A stretch of 64,000 nt of DNA, taken from an uncultured Acidobacteriota bacterium (lineage in GTDB: Bacteria > Acidobacteriota > Thermoanaerobaculia > Multivoradales > UBA5704). The notes under the pieces were generated by a model. That model was not told the DNA's origin, did not search any database, and saw only the letters and a program-made list of their open reading frames with translations. Below are positions 56,671-64,000 of the stretch, one piece after another. The translations under genes were made by a program, and so were the position numbers. Position 1 is the stretch's first letter; each line of letters starts with the position of its first letter. The stretch is taken from contig CAVYRF010000001.1 in NCBI GenBank assembly GCA_963770895.1, positions 1,184,001 through 1,248,000 of the forward strand, given 5' to 3'.

Positions 56671-59139
56671 TCAACGGCTGGGCTCTGGCGCCTCGGTTGG
56701 AGCTTCGGTCTTCTGCAGATCCGGGCCATCGAGCCCCGCCAGGGCCTGCCGAAGCTGTTCCAGGCTCTGTGCCACCTGGTAGCCGAAGCCCTCGTCCTCT
56801 CCCAGCTGAGGAGCGGCGGCGAGGACCGCAGGGACGCTCGTGTCATAGGCGTGCCGGACCAGAGCAGACCACAGCCTCGGCTTTCCCTCCTCGAGATCCT
56901 CGAAGGTCTTCCAGACGCGGGAGAGCTCTTGATGCCAGTATGCCTTGAAGCCCGAGGCAGTGAAGACGCTGTTCTCCAGATAATCCACCAGAGCTCGGAG
57001 ATCTTCCTGAATCTCGGCCAGGATTGATGCGAAATCGGCGGCTGGGCCGGACGGGCGGGCCAAGTCCTCCCTCGGTTGTGGTGCAGGCTCAGGTTCCGGC
57101 GTGGCGGGCTTCGAGGTCCCCGGCACCTCGATCTTTCGAAAGGTCACGCCCGAGAAAGCCGGCGGTGACGCATGCCTCGATGCGCTCCCGGCTTCGCTCG
57201 CAGAGAGCGGTGGTGGCGGGGGCGCGCTGAGAGGGCGCCAGCTACCATAGTCCAGGAAATGTTCCAGATCCTTGTGGGCGGGATCGACACCCTCGTAGAA
57301 CTCCGCCAAAGCTTTGATGTCCGGCGCCCTTTCCTTGAGGCTGACCCGCCGGTCCGGAACTCCCCGCGGAGCTGTCAAGAAGATCTCGGCTGCAGGCCGG
57401 GCAAAGCGGAGGAATAGAGTTGAAACGCCATGCTCGATGCGAGGCTCGATCGGGCCAAGATCCTTGTCAAGCGCTTCTTCGATGCCCTTGATGCCCCAGA
57501 GAAGCTCTACCATTTTGCTCGTCAGCTCGCCGATGGACCGGTTGAGGTCCGCGGCCAGGTCCCGGCCGATGCCGTCGATGTGCTTCACGGCCTCCTGGTG
57601 GACCACCTTCCTGATCGCGATGTGAGCCGAGACGGGCAGGAATCTGCCATCGCCCGTGCGTCCATGGACCTTGTAGAGCTCCTGAATCTTATCTGGTGAC
57701 GCAGATGGCAGAGCTGCTTCAAAGCCGTGGACGAGGTCCCGGTAGCGGCCACGGAATCTCGTCAGCTCCGGGTTGTCGGACGGTTCCGCATCGACTTCTC
57801 GTCCGACCTTGGGCATTACTTTAGAATCGTAAAAGTCGCCCAGGTCCTTGCGGATTCTCGTCCACTCCTGGGTCCACCAGGCGTTGAAGGCGATCTCGAA
57901 CCGGCGGTCTCCGTCTTCCTGATAGTTGCCAGAAAATTCGGGGAACCTCTCTTCGAGTTGGTTGACCAGGTCACGGGCGACCCGGCGAAGGTCCGCCAGA
58001 ATCCTGTCACAGCGGCGGGCGAGAAGACTGGAGCGTTCGCCGTCGATATATGCCTGCACAGCGCGCTTGAGCTCGTCTATCCCATCGCCGACGCCGAGCT
58101 GGGCGAGGCGGGCCACGATGTTGGGCCCGTAGCGCATCACCTCTTCGCGTCCGGCGCCATTGCGGAAGAGGAGCGCGGGAGGGCAGACAGGCAGGACGCG
58201 GTCCGGTGGTATCCCTCGCCACTCGCGCCGGGCGCTTTCGAGAAGCTCGCGGAAATGCTGAACATCTTCGGCGGTGTCGATGCGCGTCAACACCACAAAA
58301 GTCTTACCTGCGGCCTTGACCGCCGGATCCTCGATGTCCGCAAAGCGGAGCATGCGCACCTCGGTCCCTTCGCGGTTGGGAGAGCGGAAGTCCTTGGCAT
58401 AGAGGATGGCGTCGCACTCAGCAATCTTCTGCTGCGCTTGTTGCTTGTGCATTTCAAGGGGAGAATTGAATCCAGGTACGTCATGAAAAACCAGGTCGCG
58501 GGCGGCGCGCAGCGCCGTTGTGCGCAGAATGATGCGCCGCACGGCCCGTGCATAGGCGGGATCCGTGATGACCCGCGTGAGATCCTGGCGGATCTCCCGG
58601 ATATCCAGAAACGATCGCTTTTCGGGAGAACGGCCCAGGAGAGGGCGGATCTGCGCTTCCAGCCCCCTGGTTTCTTCAAGGTCATTGTCCAGGTCTCGGA
58701 AGTCCTGCCCCTCCTGGCGTTGCGCAGCGGCGAGAGATGCATGAGCCTTGCGCTTCTGGTCGAGCTCCTCGGCAAACTCCTCGGGTGTGCGATATTCGAT
58801 TTCATAGCTCTGATCCCGCTCGCTGGGAGCGGACCAGATCTCGGTCGGAGTATAGGTGCACCGCTCATCCCGCGATGGGAGGATCTCGGCACCCAACCAG
58901 GCATTGATGAGAGCGCTTTTCCCGGCCTTTTCGAGACCGAGGACCGCCACATGGAACTGATTGTCGCGGAGCTTCTTGAGCTGACGGGCCAGCTGGGGCG
59001 CCAATTGGTCAAGCTTCTGACCGATCTTGGCCGTCAGGTTGGCAGCCTGCTGGCTCTGCAGGTCCCGCGCACGGGAGAGTACCGCATCCGCAAGCTGCAT
59101 CCTTGTCAGGTAGTGAGCACGGAAGGTTTCCCAACTCAT
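56671..59139 (-). CDS. Dynamin-like GTPase (822 aa)
   Basis: GGAGA RBS + ATG 59139; G1 GLEKAGKS, G2 RCT, G3 DVPG, G4 TRID; long helical C-terminal part. Confidence 0.88.
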   Translation of the reverse strand: MSWETFRAHYLTRMQLADAVLSRARDLQSQQAANLTAKIGQKLDQLAPQLARQLKKLRDNQFHVAVLGLEKAGKSALINAWLGAEILPSRDERCTYTPTEIWSAPSERDQSYEIEYRTPEEFAEELDQKRKAHASLAAAQRQEGQDFRDLDNDLEETRGLEAQIRPLLGRSPEKRSFLDIREIRQDLTRVITDPAYARAVRRIILRTTALRAARDLVFHDVPGFNSPLEMHKQQAQQKIAECDAILYAKDFRSPNREGTEVRMLRFADIEDPAVKAAGKTFVVLTRIDTAEDVQHFRELLESARREWRGIPPDRVLPVCPPALLFRNGAGREEVMRYGPNIVARLAQLGVGDGIDELKRAVQAYIDGERSSLLARRCDRILADLRRVARDLVNQLEERFPEFSGNYQEDGDRRFEIAFNAWWTQEWTRIRKDLGDFYDSKVMPKVGREVDAEPSDNPELTRFRGRYRDLVHGFEAALPSASPDKIQELYKVHGRTGDGRFLPVSAHIAIRKVVHQEAVKHIDGIGRDLAADLNRSIGELTSKMVELLWGIKGIEEALDKDLGPIEPRIEHGVSTLFLRFARPAAEIFLTAPRGVPDRRVSLKERAPDIKALAEFYEGVDPAHKDLEHFLDYGSWRPLSAPPPPPLSASEAGSASRHASPPAFSGVTFRKIEVPGTSKPATPEPEPAPQPREDLARPSGPAADFASILAEIQEDLRALVDYLENSVFTASGFKAYWHQELSRVWKTFEDLEEGKPRLWSALVRHAYDTSVPAVLAAAPQLGEDEGFGYQVAQSLEQLRQALAGLDGPDLQKTEAPTEAPEPSR

Positions 59140-59156
59140 CGTTTGTTCTCCGCTTC

Positions 59157-60365
59157 TCAGGATTTCAACAGGATGAGGAGTATGACAATGGCAGCCAGGA
59201 CAAGGAACGTCCACACCAACACCGTGAAGCCGGAAGGTCCGGCCCCAACCCGCGGCTGCGCAGGAGCGACCGGTGACAGAGCCGGTGGTGGATGCAGGGG
59301 CGCTGGGGTTGTCCTTGTCGCAGCTCCAGTCTTTGGAGTAGGCGGCGGTGGCGCCGGCTTCAGGCTCCTGATGTGGCTACGGACCAGATTCCAGGAATCT
59401 GCGGCAGGAATCCTGGCTACGAGATCGCCAAGCGAGGCCCGTAACAGACCAATGGGCGGACAGGTCGCAAGCGAGGCCGAGCGCCACGTCTGACGAAATA
59501 CGTCCCAAAAGGTCGGTGCGAAGCCGCGCAGCCATCTCTCGGCCTCCCGGAAGCGCTCGCCTGCTTCCTGGGAACCATGGTCGTCGCCAAAGAACCCGCT
59601 CTCTCCCGTCATTGCAGCGAGGGGAGGGTTGGCCAGAAGGAGGATTTCCGCCGCGAGGATCGCTGCGGCGTAGCGATCTCCTTCCCTGCAGGCGACGCGA
59701 TTGTCTCTCGGGTGTGTATAACCGGGAGTGCCGCGGCTGTCTCCAGGCGGTGTTCCCGGAAAGTACACGTCCTCCAGATCGATGACTTGGATTTTGCGAG
59801 CCGCGAGCTCGATGACGACGTTGCCTCCGGCGATGTCGGTATGAGTGGCGCAGAGACCTTCGATTGAGCAGACCACGTCGAGAAAATGTGCGCATAGATG
59901 GATCGCCGCGGGGGCCTCGAGGTGCTTCCCCTCGGTCGCAGCTTCTAGAATCTCATTCCAGGTTTGTCCCCCGATCCAGGGCATGAGCATCGCGTAGCTC
60001 AGCTGGTCCCAGAGCCTTGTGGCTGGATCGGAGGGCAGGATCACACGACGGTTGGCTGCCCGCAGGCCGTCGAGCTGGTAGAGCGGCTCCAGACGGCGTG
60101 CAATGTGCGCGAGCTCGGGCGACCGGCACCCAGGCCGGAAGACCTTGAGCGCCCAGTCCTGGCCAGTCAGGCTCCGCAGCTTGTAGATCGTCGCCCGGCC
60201 GCCGACGTCGCTCGCGTGCACCATCCTGAATGTGCCCCTCTCGAAGCTGCGGAAGAAAAAGGATTCGCCGAACAGCGCGATCTCCTGATCCGGTTGGGGC
60301 TTGAACACTGTCGCGGCGGTTGCGTCAGGGCTGTCCCTGGCGAATGTCGATCTTGTAGAATCCAC
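59157..60365 (-). CDS. Protein kinase-like enzyme with a C-terminal membrane anchor
   Basis: GGRATIY, WALKVF, HTDIAGGN, VIDLED, GTPGY, DRYA; Pro-rich linker, then FTVLVWTFLVLAAIVILLILL. Alternative start GTG 60308. Confidence 0.85.
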   Translation of the reverse strand: MDSTRSTFARDSPDATAATVFKPQPDQEIALFGESFFFRSFERGTFRMVHASDVGGRATIYKLRSLTGQDWALKVFRPGCRSPELAHIARRLEPLYQLDGLRAANRRVILPSDPATRLWDQLSYAMLMPWIGGQTWNEILEAATEGKHLEAPAAIHLCAHFLDVVCSIEGLCATHTDIAGGNVVIELAARKIQVIDLEDVYFPGTPPGDSRGTPGYTHPRDNRVACREGDRYAAAILAAEILLLANPPLAAMTGESGFFGDDHGSQEAGERFREAERWLRGFAPTFWDVFRQTWRSASLATCPPIGLLRASLGDLVARIPAADSWNLVRSHIRSLKPAPPPPTPKTGAATRTTPAPLHPPPALSPVAPAQPRVGAGPSGFTVLVWTFLVLAAIVILLILLKS

Positions 60366-61704
60366 GATTCTCCCCAGGTCCCGGGTAATTCCGGCTGCGA
60401 CCGCGGAACGTGTAGGTCTGCTTCGTTAGGACGGAGCCATCTTGGCTGAGCGCTCGGATCTCCATTTCGAGAGCATCGATCTTTTGGATAGTCGGGAAGT
60501 CGTTCCCCGGCGTCCAACGCGCGATTGGTTTCTCCTTCGCCCAGATCTCGACCGCGGAGACCTCTGCTGGAGCCTCGATCCGAAGAACGACCTCTCCCCC
60601 GAGGGCACTTTTGCCGGACTGGTCGAGCGGCTCGGCAGCAATGAGCCACTCTGGTGTGCGTTTCGCAGGGGTGACCTCGCGAGGTGCACGGTCCAGCAGT
60701 TCGGCGGCTCCGAGATGTATGTTCAAGCCGGGCTCGGGCCCCTGCCGCGGGGGCTCAGAGAGGAGAGCCGTCATGATCCTCGCTCCCGCGAGCAGCCCCA
60801 CAACCAGGGCCGCAGCGGTCCATAACGGCCAGTACGCCTGGCGGCGTGGCGGTGAAGCGTCGCTCTTGATGATGCGTCGCGGCGGATCCGGGGGTAAAGG
60901 AGGTTCGATCACGGGCTGGGCATGGGCCGCAACCGCGACGAAGCAGAGATCGTCGTCGCTCGCCTTTTCCTCAGCGACCCGCTCGAAGCCTTGCGGAGAC
61001 AAATTCCAATCCTCCCCGAGGCCATCTGAATGGATGACGCATCTCGTGACGTTTCGCAAGATCCGGCTTTCGAGGAGGAGAGGGGCTTCGCCGGTGCTGG
61101 ACCAGCGCCCCCGGGAGGACCCCGTAACGCCGCTCCAATGTCCATCTGCCAGGGCGATCCAGGCTTGGACGTCGCCAACCAGGTATAGGTGCAGGGTGCC
61201 TTCCACCCTGCCGAGGACAAACGCGCCGAACACCGTCTGCGAGCCATCGAGCCGCGCCTTTTTGACGGCGCCTTGGACCAGGGGAGGAAGGTCCGCCCCC
61301 GTTGGTATCGCCAGGACAAGACGCTGGATCTCTGGCGTCCAGCTCAGGAGAGTTGCTGTAAGCCGCTCCTCGCTAGGAGGAGTGGAACGCAGGTCCCAGA
61401 GGTGCTCGAGCAAGCGTTCGGACACTTCACGCGCTGCCAGCTCGCCATGGAACGATTGGCTCACTCCGTCGGCGGCGATGCCCACCACATGGACACCATC
61501 GGTGCGCAGCACCGCGAAATCCTGACCGGACGTACCCTGGGCATCGTGCTCCCGGCATTTCCTGTACCCGAGGTCTACCTCCAAGCCATGGTTCTTGAAG
61601 TCCCGATGCTTGTGCTGGACCTCCGTCGAGGAGGGGTCTGCGCGAAGATCCAGGGAGTGGGTCTCGTGGGCGGCCCTTCCCTCGCCGGAGATCTTGGGGA
61701 TCAT
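60325..61704 (-). CDS. PP2C-like phosphatase with a TM helix and C-terminal domain
   Basis: ATGA overlap with vWA; GQDF, AADGVSQS, HSDG, SDDD; TM WPLWTAAALVVGLLAGARIMTALL. Confidence 0.85.
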   Translation of the reverse strand: MIPKISGEGRAAHETHSLDLRADPSSTEVQHKHRDFKNHGLEVDLGYRKCREHDAQGTSGQDFAVLRTDGVHVVGIAADGVSQSFHGELAAREVSERLLEHLWDLRSTPPSEERLTATLLSWTPEIQRLVLAIPTGADLPPLVQGAVKKARLDGSQTVFGAFVLGRVEGTLHLYLVGDVQAWIALADGHWSGVTGSSRGRWSSTGEAPLLLESRILRNVTRCVIHSDGLGEDWNLSPQGFERVAEEKASDDDLCFVAVAAHAQPVIEPPLPPDPPRRIIKSDASPPRRQAYWPLWTAAALVVGLLAGARIMTALLSEPPRQGPEPGLNIHLGAAELLDRAPREVTPAKRTPEWLIAAEPLDQSGKSALGGEVVLRIEAPAEVSAVEIWAKEKPIARWTPGNDFPTIQKIDALEMEIRALSQDGSVLTKQTYTFRGRSRNYPGPGENRGFYKIDIRQGQP

Positions 61705-62456
61705 CGCCGCACCTGGTCTGTTGCCTTCGACATGACGAATCCGAGCTCGACCAGCTCCGGCCGGGTTCCCGGAATCAACATCCGATTGCCGGCGGCGAAT
61801 CGGTAGCCCTGGGTCGCCAGGACTTCGGCATAACTCGGCGGCAGAGGGGAGGACATCCGGAAGAGCTTCTGTGCATGGGGGTCTTTGAGCTCCGAAAGGC
61901 TCCCCACTCCGGGCCACCCCTTGACGTCACGAATCAAGGTTTGAGTGAGGTCTGCCCCGAGATAGACGTTTTCGACGAGGACGTTCCCGTCGGAAGTGGA
62001 GATGCCCATGATCTCCCGGACCATGGGCTCGGGATCGGCTGTGCTGTGCTCGCCGTCGGTCAGGTGGCAGACCAGAGGAGCTGGGCGCCCTGCCAGCCTC
62101 GGCATCTCGCGGACCAGGAGATCCCGCGCCACGGCGAAGGCCTCGTATGTCGAGGTCGCCTCGTTCGCGGTGAACTCCGGGATTCCGATATCCACCACCT
62201 GCTGGAGGAGACGGGGACCGCCGAAGATATCGACGACTTTGTCGCTGTACGAGAAAAGAGCGACCTCGTAGCGTGACAGAATCTGTTCGCCTACCAGGGA
62301 GCGCTGGATCATCCTTTCGAAAACCTGTCGAAGGGCTTGATTCACATGCGCGATCTTCGACGCTCCGTCCAGCAGGTCGGTCATCGAACCGCTGACGTCG
62401 ATGAGGTAGATGATGAGTGCGGGGGTCTGCCTGGTTGCCTTGATACCGTAGGGCAT
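61701..62456 (-). CDS. Stand-alone vWA protein (TerY-like)
   Basis: AGGAGGT RBS; MIDAS IDVSGSM, TST, HLTDG. Confidence 0.9.
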   Translation of the reverse strand: MPYGIKATRQTPALIIYLIDVSGSMTDLLDGASKIAHVNQALRQVFERMIQRSLVGEQILSRYEVALFSYSDKVVDIFGGPRLLQQVVDIGIPEFTANEATSTYEAFAVARDLLVREMPRLAGRPAPLVCHLTDGEHSTADPEPMVREIMGISTSDGNVLVENVYLGADLTQTLIRDVKGWPGVGSLSELKDPHAQKLFRMSSPLPPSYAEVLATQGYRFAAGNRMLIPGTRPELVELGFVMSKATDQVRR

Positions 62457-62710
62457 CGGGATCTCACCTCCTAGCCCACAGAAACCACTTCCTCCCTTCT
62501 TGTTTAGACGGCTGGCAACGAACCCTTGCCTGTCCTCAGCCGGGCTGGGTCGGACGTCGATGCGCGGTCGTGTTGGCGCGCTACACCGCGGACGCGACAC
62601 CGCAAATGCCAACCGTGCAGTCAGCTCCGCAGGCGCCAGGCCTCGCCTACTGGCTGGCGCAACAGCCGCATGGCTGTCGCCGCTTCCGGCAGATCTGGCA
62701 GTGGCGTTAA

Positions 62711-64000
62711 CTCTACTTTGTCAGATTTCGGAAGCGCTTGATTCCAAGGCGGTTAGCTCTTAGAATTGGGCTGGAAAGTATGATTTCTCGCCGAGACCAG
62801 ATGCTTCCCCCCCTCAAAGGACCATAGTCGGAAGGAGAGACGCTATGCCCCAGCTCCCCTGCAAGAGCTGGGAGCGCGATTCCTGGCCTTTCAGCGGGGA
62901 TTTGCGCTTCTTTTCCGCCTGCGGACCCGAGACGTGAACTTGCAAGCACGGGCGTATCTGAGCGGTTTGTTGCAGGCCGCAAAGCGCAACGTCCAGCGGA
63001 TGGCAGAGGTGGTGCCCGGCACCGAGGCTCAGGCACTGCACCACTTTCTCGCTCATTCGCCCTGGGATGCGCGAGCCGTCATGGATCAAGTGGCGAAAGA
63101 GGTCGGCGGGCTGTTGGGCGGAGATCAGGACACCTGCCTGCTGCTCGACGAGACCTGCTTTGCGAAGAAAGGCGTTCGGTCGGTGGGCGTAGCTCGGCAG
63201 TGGTTCGGCTTGCAGGGCAAGACGGATAACTGCCAGGTGGCGGTCTTCGCCGCCTTGGCGCGAGGCAAGCGGGTCAGCCTGATCGATGCGGAGCTGTACC
63301 TGCCGCGGGAGTGGGTCGAGGATCCAATGCGATGTGCCGCGGCGGGTGTGCCGGTTGAGCGCCGCGTGATGAAGACGAAGCCAGCGTTGGCTCTGGATCT
63401 GGTTCGACGAGCACGACGCAACGGAGTGCACTTCGCCTGGGTGGCGGCGGATGGGACGTATGGTCAGGATCGCGCTCTGCTGCGCGCCCTCGACGACGCC
63501 GATGAGACGTTTGTCATCGATGTTCACCGGGACCAACGGGTCTTTCTTGACAACCCGCGTCGGGCCAAACGACGTCGGGCGACACCGGAGTCTCGCGCTG
63601 AAGACTTGCGTGTGGACGAATGGGTTGCTCGCCAACCGGCCGCAGCATGGCAAGAAGTATGGGTCCGGCGCGGGACCCAAGGGGAGCTTCGTGTGCAAGC
63701 CCTGCGTTGCCGCGTCTGGGTGCGCGAAGCCACAGAGACCCAAGCCCGCTGTTGGCAGTTGATCGTGACGCGCGAGATCGGTGCGCCCGACACCACCAAG
63801 TACAGCTTCAGCAATGCCGCCGAGCAGACCTCTTTGCAACGGTTGGCTTATATGCAGCGGCAGCGCTACTGGGTCGAACGTGCCTTCCAGGAAGCCAAGA
63901 ACGAGGCCGGCATGGACGAATACCAGGCGCGAAGCTGGCAAGCTTGGTATCACCACATGGCCCTCGTCATGATGGCGCTGCTTTTCATTCTGAAAGAAAA
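62711..64000 (+). mobile_element. IS701-family insertion sequence, right end beyond the window
   Basis: Transposase motifs; putative left end CTCTACTTTGTCAGATT at ~62711. Confidence 0.85.
62859..64000 (+). CDS. IS701-family DDE transposase (3'-truncated, start uncertain; absent from the ORF track)
   Basis: AYLSGLLQAAKRNVQRMAE, HHFLAHSPWD, LLDETCFAKKGVRSVGVARQW...NCQVAV, VAADGTYG, RYWVERAFQEAK, WYHHMALV. Confidence 0.92.
   Translation, partial: MQELGARFLAFQRGFALLFRLRTRDVNLQARAYLSGLLQAAKRNVQRMAEVVPGTEAQALHHFLAHSPWDARAVMDQVAKEVGGLLGGDQDTCLLLDETCFAKKGVRSVGVARQWFGLQGKTDNCQVAVFAALARGKRVSLIDAELYLPREWVEDPMRCAAAGVPVERRVMKTKPALALDLVRRARRNGVHFAWVAADGTYGQDRALLRALDDADETFVIDVHRDQRVFLDNPRRAKRRRATPESRAEDLRVDEWVARQPAAAWQEVWVRRGTQGELRVQALRCRVWVREATETQARCWQLIVTREIGAPDTTKYSFSNAAEQTSLQRLAYMQRQRYWVERAFQEAKNEAGMDEYQARSWQAWYHHMALVMMALLFILKE

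Follow-up and report, generated by a model that had tools for sequence, protein, structure and literature searches.

A membrane-anchored TerY-P-like triad with a dynamin-like GTPase as its fourth gene in an acidobacterial genome

Within the analysed window, a 64,000-nucleotide stretch of an acidobacterial genome, the minus strand of positions 56671-62456 carries four intact and co-oriented genes encoding a vWA protein, a PP2C phosphatase, a kinase and a dynamin (Table 1). These genes are tightly packed. The ATG of the vWA gene is preceded by a GGAGGTGA box, and a direct reading of the sequence places an ATGA start/stop overlap at the vWA/PP2C junction. The GTG start of the kinase gene, preceded by a GGGGAG box, gives an overlap of 41 nt with the PP2C gene; if the alternative GTG at 60308 is used, a gap of 16 nt separates the two genes instead. 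The kinase and dynamin genes are 17 nt apart, and this short gap, which contains a GGAG ribosome-binding box, indicates that the two are co-translated. All four reading frames are full length relative to their homologues. The operon genes also differ in composition from their native neighbours, with a GC content of 0.61-0.64 and a GC3 of 0.71-0.77 as against 0.745-0.76 and 0.84-0.90, respectively (genome average GC, 0.709). The genes to the left of the operon encode glycosyltransferases. The original prediction had named the four genes, noted their tight packing and their lower GC content relative to the genes on their left, and placed them beside an IS701 element, and each of these points was borne out, the kinase being recognised through its AlphaFold model and Foldseek and the other three products through profile matches. 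That the four-gene operon represents one horizontally acquired functional unit is a proposal to which we give about an even chance.

Table 1. Features of the operon and its upstream flank
Feature	Coordinates	Strand	Basis
TerY-like vWA protein, 251 aa	61701..62456	-	PADLOC TerY 1.5e-23; Pfam VWA_2 27.7 bits (cut-off 27)
PP2C phosphatase, 459 aa	60325..61704	-	PP2C_2 (PF13672) 28.3 bits (cut-off 24)
Divergent eukaryote-like protein kinase, 402 aa	59157..60365 (alternative start 60308)	-	Invariant motifs, AlphaFold/Foldseek
BDLP-class dynamin-like GTPase, 822 aa	56671..59139	-	Dynamin_N 55.8 bits (cut-off 27)
Leader, 250 bp, from IS end to vWA start	62457..62706	-	Sequence read
IS701-type insertion sequence, DDE_5 transposase	62707..64000 (true end 64217, past the window)	+	DDE_5 2.5e-50

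The insertion sequence, whose edge lies 251 bp upstream of the vWA start, is 1511 bp long and is bounded by perfect 21-bp inverted ends (62707-62727 and 64197-64217). It is active, and the genome carries four full-length copies at 96.9-100% identity. Any native promoter of the operon must either lie inside the leader or have been displaced by the element, which may have cut the operon off from it. No sigma-70-like site was observed on the minus strand of the leader, and a minus-strand scan for promoters and terminators returned nothing above chance. The island is a mosaic in which fragments of an IS3-type orfA and of a PadR-like gene accompany the insertion sequence; beyond this element lie a CHAT gene and another that is MotA/ExbB-like and matches ZorA weakly. 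This CHAT/MotA-like cluster was considered as a part of the same operon and rejected: it is on the opposite strand, its GC3 (0.80-0.87) differs from that of the operon, and the insertion sequence and gene remnants lie in between.

The vWA protein retains a MIDAS motif (D20-x-S22-x-S24), has no membrane segment and is 51% identical to a paralogue on another contig (C2) of the same genome. The phosphatase comprises a catalytic domain (approximately residues 45-260), a single transmembrane helix placed at residues 293-317 by hydropathy alone, and a C-terminal domain of about 140 aa that is predicted to lie outside the cytoplasm. The metal-binding aspartates of its catalytic domain (in D62, D79-G80, D227-G228 and D251-D252) are invariant across 12 sequences, and a full-length orthologue (P0117) displays the same architecture. 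For the outer domain, protein-atlas scores not exceeding 0.81 point to Ig-like beta-sandwich clusters, which may serve as a lead.

The kinase falls below every Pfam cut-off, with APH at 19.2 where 23.2 is needed. Its AlphaFold model (pLDDT 88.2) matches the protein-kinase fold, the top Foldseek matches being TTBK1, Lyn, YabT, CK1 and PknB (E 7e-10 to 3e-8), and the residues K74, H175-T-D177, N182 and D196 are invariant in 18 sequences. The C-terminal part of the protein consists of a Pro-rich linker followed by a tail-anchor helix (residues 375-402, again from hydropathy alone), and neither an OB fold (Gao type) nor a zinc ribbon (CoCoNuT type) was identified at its C-terminus.

In the dynamin, the G1 motif GLEKAGKS (at residue 68), T95/T97, D220-VPG and T285-RID are invariant or nearly so across 25 sequences. 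The catalytic motifs of the other proteins are likewise present, so that the original prediction of intact MIDAS, PP2C, kinase and GTPase (G1-G4) motifs stands, as does, by hydropathy, that of membrane tethering of both enzymes. No 19-residue window of the dynamin attains a Kyte-Doolittle value of 1.6, and hydropathy revealed neither a hydrophobic segment nor a hydrophobic paddle. A long, disordered, Ser/Thr/Pro-rich linker (approximately residues 645-700) is specific to its clade. The AlphaFold model (pLDDT 83.6) predicts a GTPase-plus-helical-bundle fold, neck and trunk included, and the top Foldseek matches are SynDLP (7zw6), BDLP (2j69), IniA (6j72), the Campylobacter DLP pair (5oxf) and mitofusin, with E-values of 8.7e-13 to 9e-10. 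The alignments to SynDLP, BDLP, IniA and Campylobacter DLP extend over 800-900 columns with low TM-scores (0.22-0.35), a level to be expected of proteins with flexible hinges.

The vWA, PP2C and kinase genes together constitute a membrane-anchored variant of the TerY-P triad (Anantharaman et al. 2012; described by Gao et al. 2020 as an anti-phage system that stands alone; cited through PMC10542128 and PMC4978471). The predicted likeness was confirmed by the TerY profile match together with the adjacent PP2C and kinase genes and their catalytic residues. TerY-P is presented in PMC10542128 as a mobile phospho-switch coupled to varied systems, stand-alone TerY-P-like modules being described there as defending against phages, and its association with WXG/FtsK genes is mentioned in PMC4978471. 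PADLOC returned a strong TerY match, STK_OB for the kinase at just 8.2e-4 (spanning profile positions 111-182 of 562), weak LeoA/LeoBC matches for the dynamin, and no match to any of its models for the PP2C protein. In line with the original prediction, against which an existing model for the whole operon would have counted, no PADLOC model set spans all four genes, and a membrane-anchored TerY-P sub-type is apparently missing from PADLOC.

Further copies of the membrane-anchored triad occur in soil metagenomes, with one more in the host genome, and in the nearest loci as well as in the host's paralogous cluster the PP2C protein and the kinase are both membrane-anchored. Of the 49 kinase loci, 25 contained a vWA gene and 18 a PP2C gene, many of the contigs being short. 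The neighbours of these triads are varied and include CHAT genes (L099, L104), a WD40-TIR gene (L103), a trypsin-like peptidase (L108), barnase/barstar (L122) and FtsK with WXG100/YukD (L119, L138). Several further neighbours are ordinary genes, such as those for a permease, a lyase and an ABC1 kinase.

The dynamin subfamily occurs elsewhere either as a solitary gene, as in Methylococcales, or in dynamin-X-dynamin operons. The Methylococcales genes adjoin ordinary ones, for example TauE, Rrf2/IscS-like genes, phosphofructokinase and a Na/H exchanger; since most subfamily dynamins reside in such housekeeping-like contexts, defence is not an intrinsic function of this GTPase. The dynamin(~870 aa)-X(~270-308 aa)-dynamin arrangement is that of the closest genomic relatives (loci L003, L004 and L006). 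A second dynamin of ~870 aa and a small protein are absent directly upstream at the operon described here, and the sole other Dynamin_N gene of the genome is far off, on contig C2.

This leads to the question as to how widespread the linkage of triad and dynamin is. Triad genes were found in none of 80 dynamin-subfamily loci, and no dynamin was found in any of 49 triad loci by tblastn or with a GTPase-domain HMM, which in a control recovered 14 dynamins in 11 loci. In the 60 related genomes the four-gene system was not found: dynamin matches were weak and partial (5/60), and kinase matches (3/60) were strong just in one genome (G028), where the match is a two-kinase cluster resembling the paralogue on C2. 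A tblastn search of plasmids left the dynamin unmatched and gave one weak match to the kinase (24% identity, in a Brevibacillus record), and viral contigs yielded no relative of either protein.

The nearest relatives of the proteins provide a different view. A contig size of 20337 bp is common to the closest dynamin (P0005, 64% identity), a kinase (P0099, 51%) and a PP2C protein (P0117, 43%, full length), while a size of 10786 bp is common to a second set (dynamin P0006, 53%; kinase P0100, 41%; PP2C protein P0118, 45%), the two PP2C relatives having come from an exhaustive search that returned 456 relatives of the phosphatase. From equal contig size and source, rather than from gene order, we infer that PP2C, kinase and dynamin are co-located on the contigs of two relatives, the comparison covering these three genes. 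Furthermore, the operon dynamin, P0005 and P0006 form one clade with a support of 1.000 (FastTree). Equal-size contigs for the nearest relatives and a single dynamin clade together suggest a PP2C-kinase-dynamin unit that is conserved in a very small lineage only. Hence, the original expectation that dynamin and triad would co-occur elsewhere fails for the 80 and 49 loci surveyed and probably holds for the two nearest relatives of the three proteins. The linkage would then be real yet confined to a tiny clade, with three likely instances.

The best reading of these data is that a phospho-switch recruited a dynamin once, as its output or as a partner, and that the system probably serves defence or the response to envelope stress. 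More specifically, we propose that a membrane-anchored TerY-P triad captured a BDLP-class dynamin as its fourth gene, a conflict or defence role being the most likely one; in sister triads, CHAT, TIR, protease and secretion genes occupy the position of the dynamin. We regard this proposal as having a roughly equal prospect of being right or wrong. Phage defence has been reported for the Bacillus subtilis dynamin DynA. In the proposed system the tail-anchored kinase and the single-pass PP2C protein would be anchored in the cytoplasmic membrane, their catalytic domains exposed to the cytoplasm and the C-terminal domain of the phosphatase to the outside. An envelope signal, be it phage attack or membrane damage, might tip the balance between kinase and phosphatase, with the outer domain of the PP2C protein or the metal site in the vWA protein perhaps acting as the sensor. 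Along the lines of the switch that the original prediction had put forward, the phosphorylation state would in turn control whether the soluble dynamin is recruited to the membrane, assembles there or shows GTPase activity, the phospho-target being either the dynamin itself, with its Ser/Thr/Pro linker as candidate acceptor, or the vWA adaptor. Finally, the dynamin would seal or remodel the membrane.

The same machinery may instead serve envelope or membrane homeostasis, the triad adjusting how the dynamin repairs or shapes membranes when the cell meets abiotic stress or develops, without being specifically connected to phages. The solitary occurrence of the subfamily dynamin beside ordinary genes in many Methylococcales is consistent with this, as are its structural relatives SynDLP, BDLP, IniA and mitofusin, which are membrane-remodelling or repair proteins, the glycosyltransferases to the left of the operon, and the first linkage of TerY-P to tellurite and stress responses (PMC10542128). 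However, the operon is foreign, patchy in distribution, flanked by insertion sequences and was not found in the 60 relatives, a pattern more typical of accessory conflict genes than of housekeeping genes, and CHAT, TIR, protease and toxin-immunity genes adjoin sister triads; we consider a homeostatic role rather unlikely, if a serious contender. It is improbable that the dynamin acts as a sensor or scaffold that detects membrane damage, assembles and activates the kinase, with targets encoded elsewhere, for example in the CHAT/MotA-like cluster past the insertion sequence. DynA-type proteins have been described as clustering at damaged membrane, and a CHAT gene lies across the insertion sequence here and also flanks two sister triads; nevertheless, the dynamin occupies the distal variable slot in which other triads carry effector-like genes, and the strand and GC3 of the CHAT cluster, together with the intervening insertion sequence and mobile-gene remnants, set it apart from the operon. 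Still less probable is a functionless linkage, in which independent or decaying genes have left the dynamin as a passenger beside the triad, for while the mosaic island with its active insertion sequence and gene fragments, and the wide occurrence of triad and dynamin each without the other, would suit it, three proteins share the same two nearest-relative contigs at 41-64% identity, which implies long co-inheritance under selection, all four frames are full length, and the kinase-dynamin junction indicates co-translation.

Beyond the capture of a dynamin by a TerY-P triad, the operon could represent a new class of system, in which a membrane kinase and phosphatase, with a vWA adaptor, gate the assembly or GTPase cycle of a dynamin in an inducible membrane-sealing or abortive phage defence, the usual partner dynamin having been exchanged for the switch; we advance this as a tentative possibility that is more likely wrong than right. 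Direct phospho-gating of this kind, if true, would parallel in a prokaryote the control that phosphorylation exerts on eukaryotic dynamins such as Drp1. To our knowledge, little is understood about what activates bacterial dynamin-like proteins, and no paper tying a bacterial dynamin to TerY-P, or to a kinase and phosphatase of its own, was found in open-access and bioRxiv full text. The rare pairing of triad and dynamin may reveal how bacteria toggle a dynamin, and the compact operon, with catalytic residues that are plain to see, lends itself to a direct test of phospho-control in a prokaryotic dynamin.

Among known systems, the operon resembles Eleos, a dynamin-like system directed against phages, in possessing a dynamin-family GTPase in a defence-island-like setting, with PADLOC matches to LeoA (2e-12, partial) and LeoBC (1.4e-8) that are both weak and confined to the GTPase core; Eleos (LeoA + LeoBC), however, has two GTPases where the operon has just one, and the partner genes are wholly different. 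With the bacterial dynamin-like proteins (Nostoc BDLP, SynDLP, IniA, the Campylobacter DLP1/DLP2 pair and B. subtilis DynA) it has the Dynamin_N domain, the G1-G4 motifs and the predicted fold in common, at a sequence identity to solved structures of only 11-16%; unlike them, its GTPase lacks a partner dynamin in the operon and is linked to a kinase and a phosphatase. With TerY-P it shares the same three domains per operon, the vWA gene first, the intact catalytic residues of PP2C and kinase, a mobile and patchy distribution, and varied conflict-like neighbours that include WXG100/FtsK, as reported for H. pylori. In contrast, the characterised TerY-P kinases end in an OB or zinc-ribbon tail where the operon kinase ends in a Pro-rich linker and membrane anchor, the PP2C protein of the operon has a transmembrane helix and an outer domain unlike that of TerY-P, and the second, soluble kinase-like gene that the nearest triads usually carry between vWA and PP2C is absent. 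Above all, a dynamin is attached to the triad, which widens the picture of TerY-P as a portable switch by a membrane-anchored sub-type that occurs next to partners as different as CHAT proteins, TIR proteins and a dynamin.

The vWA, PP2C, kinase-like and dynamin genes constitute a real, rare and conserved operon, whose four complete, co-oriented minus-strand genes fill positions 56671-62456 of a source genome region belonging to an 8.16 Mb assembly (70.9% GC, three contigs). Every particular of the four-gene observation in the original prediction was borne out, namely gene positions, orientation, junctions, families, motifs, composition and the neighbouring insertion sequence (IS); the ATGA overlap between the vWA and PP2C genes and the 17-nt kinase-dynamin gap can both be read in the sequence. 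An alternative GTG start for the kinase-like gene lies at 60308, 16 nt past the PP2C stop, and a start no later than this is favoured, since, in the alignment with relatives, residue 21 is the first of a conserved N-terminal F-x-P-x-P...LFGE block. The dynamin gene and a convergent GT2 glycosyltransferase gene have their stops 20 bp apart, and it is exactly at this boundary that GC content shifts. The four genes, which had been described as lower in GC than those to their left, indeed show GC values of 0.61-0.64 and GC3 values of 0.71-0.77, against a GC3 of 0.84-0.90 in native neighbours; hence, all four look foreign and of similar origin. The genes to the left of the operon (glycosyltransferases, amine oxidase, peptidase) are all of native composition.

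Coordinates of the operon, its surroundings and the loci compared with it (window positions unless a locus or contig is named; L numbers, loci with relatives; G000, the window's own genome; C2, one of its contigs)
Feature	Position	Strand	Remarks
vWA gene	61701-62456	minus	ATG start with GGAGGTGA ahead
PP2C gene	60325-61704	minus	ATG overlaps vWA TGA stop as ATGA
Kinase-like gene	59157-60365	minus	GTG start behind GGGGAG; 41-nt overlap with PP2C gene
Dynamin gene	56671-59139	minus	17-nt gap with GGAG separates it from kinase gene
IS701-type element (DDE_5 transposase)	62707-64217, 1511 bp, ends beyond window	plus	Perfect 21-bp inverted ends, 62707-62727 and 64197-64217
IS3-type orfA fragment and PadR-like regulator fragment	64444-65436 (L001 10444-11436)		Between IS and CHAT gene
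CHAT, MotA/ExbB-like and three further genes	65584-73435 (L001 11584-19435), past window end	plus	Tightly packed
Paralogous triad cluster	G000 C2:3026000-3030750 (L083 9999-14747)	minus	
Second Dynamin_N gene	G000 C2:4147016-4147444		Open frame up to 1363 aa
Paired-dynamin operons	L003 6311-12283; L004 5857-12295; L006 2256-8150		~870-aa dynamin, 270-308-aa protein, ~760-810-aa dynamin; Pseudomonadota, Desulfobacterales MAGs
FtsK/SpoIIIE gene	L119 15523-19599		Adjoins soluble-type triad
WXG100/YukD genes	L138 7345-8187		Adjoin soluble-type triad

The vWA protein matches PADLOC TerY (1.5e-23) as well as Pfam VWA_2, and contains the MIDAS DxSxS motif. The PP2C protein matches PP2C_2 above the Pfam cut-off, and its metal-binding aspartates do not vary among 12 aligned relatives; a transmembrane helix predicted at 293-317 is followed by ~140 residues, and a weak likeness to Ig-like beta-sandwiches (scores no higher than 0.81) was the sole lead for this C-terminal domain. 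No Pfam family reached its cut-off for the kinase-like protein. Its beta-3 lysine K74, the H-T-D177 catalytic loop with N182, and D196, which stands in a DLE motif replacing DFG, are all invariant in an 18-sequence alignment, while its AlphaFold model (pLDDT 88.2) matches TTBK1/CK1, Src-family kinases, B. subtilis YabT and PknB. A Pro-rich linker and, at 375-402, a strongly hydrophobic tail form the C-terminus of the protein, and the proposed membrane tethering of both enzymes is thus predicted by hydropathy. The dynamin (Dynamin_N, 55.8 bits) has G1-G4 motifs that are invariant or nearly so among 25 relatives, and its model (pLDDT 83.6) matches SynDLP, Nostoc BDLP, IniA, the Campylobacter DLP1/DLP2 pair and mitofusins; hydropathy analysis found no hydrophobic segment in it. 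Residues ~645-700 form a disordered Ser/Thr/Pro-rich linker that is extended in the dynamin's small clade compared with other relatives. The MIDAS, PP2C Asp, kinase Lys/HxD/N and GTPase motifs, previously judged intact, are so in the sequence, and those of the three enzymes in the alignments as well. An unrelated second Dynamin_N gene of the same genome is probably the host's own dynamin-like protein.

We propose, with about even confidence, that the operon encodes a phospho-switch controlling the dynamin, with a role in defence. The kinase/PP2C pair would set a state of phosphorylation on the cytoplasmic side of the membrane, with the vWA protein acting as a metal-dependent adaptor or phospho-target; this state may in turn control dynamin recruitment or GTPase-driven membrane remodelling, the presumed trigger being envelope damage or phage attack. 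Such phospho-control, once demonstrated, would sharply raise the significance of the operon.

The IS701 element reported beside the operon proved to be a DDE_5 transposase gene within a complete IS with perfect inverted ends. Situated 251 bp upstream of the start of the vWA gene, it could influence operon expression. Four full-length copies (two identical, one 99.9%, one 96.9%) and several fragments of it occur in the genome, so the element is active in this host and has moved recently. Beyond it, the stretch with IS3-type orfA and PadR-like remnants is mosaic and decaying, the N-terminus of the orfA remnant resembling a transposase helix-turn-helix. The CHAT cluster that follows, in which the MotA/ExbB-like gene has weak ZorA matches and three genes (421-843 aa products) match nothing in Pfam or PADLOC, could form an uncharacterised defence system of its own.

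A word-indexed search with the dynamin gave 93 clusters, query included, with ~70 full-length relatives at 31-64% identity, and a scan of one genome per species returned 146 relatives; the 80 best loci among them were retained. These best 80 are mostly from Methylococcales (33-36% identity), and tblastn found a vWA, PP2C or kinase match in none of them. Dynamin neighbours were inspected in seven of the 80. The closest of these, L003 (43%), L004 (38%) and L006 (36%), encode a second dynamin and a 270-308 aa protein directly upstream, and could represent an uncharacterised paired-dynamin system; HEPN and MoxR-type AAA genes lie near that of L004, and a phage-type integrase gene follows that of L006. 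At three loci from Methylococcales and one from Acidobacteriota, the neighbours are unrelated and resemble housekeeping genes. Solitary dynamins of this subfamily occur in dozens of Methylococcales species (L007-L082) in varying housekeeping-like contexts, suggesting that these methanotrophs have conserved it for a membrane function. The subfamily therefore has no general link with the triad, and for most of it a defensive role is not obvious. That the same machinery serves general membrane stress is, for the operon, a less likely alternative; that the dynamin acts as the sensor is less probable still.

The kinase family is small (19 clusters in the word-indexed search, query included). Metagenome contigs scanned with the kinase alignment yielded at least 49 loci; among the 49 listed, tblastn placed a vWA gene upstream of the kinase in 25 and a PP2C gene in 18, though many contigs are too short for further genes to be seen. 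In the nearest loci (L101, L103, L104, L107 and, in part, L099) the gene order is a vWA gene, a soluble kinase-like gene, a transmembrane PP2C and a tail-anchored kinase, and more distant ones encode short soluble enzymes. The paralogous cluster on C2 is a membrane-type triad with two kinases: vWA (51% identity to the operon gene), kinase-like gene (33%), PP2C with a transmembrane helix (35%) and tail-anchored kinase (42%). Its GC content is below that of its flanks, GT4 glycosyltransferase and asparagine synthase genes come after it, and it is without a dynamin. Downstream of the kinases, 41 of the 81 ORFs listed were scanned, most short and opposite-strand ORFs being left out. Conflict-type neighbours included CHAT (L099, L104), WD40-TIR (L103), a trypsin-like peptidase (L108), another protein kinase (L118), barnase/barstar (L122), FtsK (L119), WXG100/YukD (L138) and NB-ARC-TPR (L135); permease, lyase, ABC1 kinase and sedolisin-type protease genes were more ordinary. 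Passages of PMC10542128 and PMC4978471 describe TerY-P as a portable switch joined to varied systems, WXG/FtsK genes among them, and the varied neighbours found here, FtsK and WXG100/YukD included, agree with those descriptions. The latter two, beside soluble-type triads, echo the published tie of TerY-P to type VII-like secretion components. A dynamin was detected in none of the 49 triad loci listed, either by tblastn with the window's dynamin or by a GTPase-domain HMM, which recovered 14 dynamin frames in 11 control loci, distant ones included.

The expected co-occurrence of dynamin and triad thus fails in the best 80 of the 146 dynamin loci and in the triad loci listed, but holds in a small clade. 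The dynamin's nearest relatives, P0005 (64%) and P0006 (53%), each lie on one contig, of 20337 and 10786 bp, respectively. The second- and third-ranked kinase relatives, P0099 (51%) and P0100 (41%), lie on single contigs of these same sizes and with the same source labels; the top-ranked P0098 (54%) is on a contig of 2304 bp, too short to inform. An exhaustive PP2C search gave 456 matches, the best two being P0117 (43%, aligned from end to end, with the transmembrane and C-terminal parts included), on a 20337-bp contig, and P0118 (45%, catalytic domain only), on a 10786-bp contig. As three independent searches converge on the same two contig sizes, chance is not plausible, and a meaningless adjacency of dynamin and triad carries little weight. 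Co-occurrence of PP2C, kinase and dynamin is therefore kept in about three instances, two of them read from equal-sized contigs rather than gene order. The three dynamins form one clade (support 1.000; 32 sequences, 764 columns) that branches from within the second dynamins of the paired operons; support for its exact sister is poor (0.38). Most simply, this would mean that a membrane-anchored triad captured a DLP2-type dynamin once and that the genes were then inherited together down to ~40-50% identity.

Searches of the main text of open-access and bioRxiv papers found none that connects a bacterial dynamin with TerY-P or with a vWA/PP2C/kinase set. The dynamin belongs to the BDLP class, and the operon is a member of neither the Eleos system nor the paired DLP operons. 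It shares three defining features with the TerY-P triad, a TerY-like vWA protein, a PP2C and a kinase; however, the kinase C-terminus is without the OB or zinc-ribbon feature and the PP2C is not recognised by PADLOC. Hence, its first three genes are best described as a membrane-anchored variant of TerY-P rather than a canonical member.
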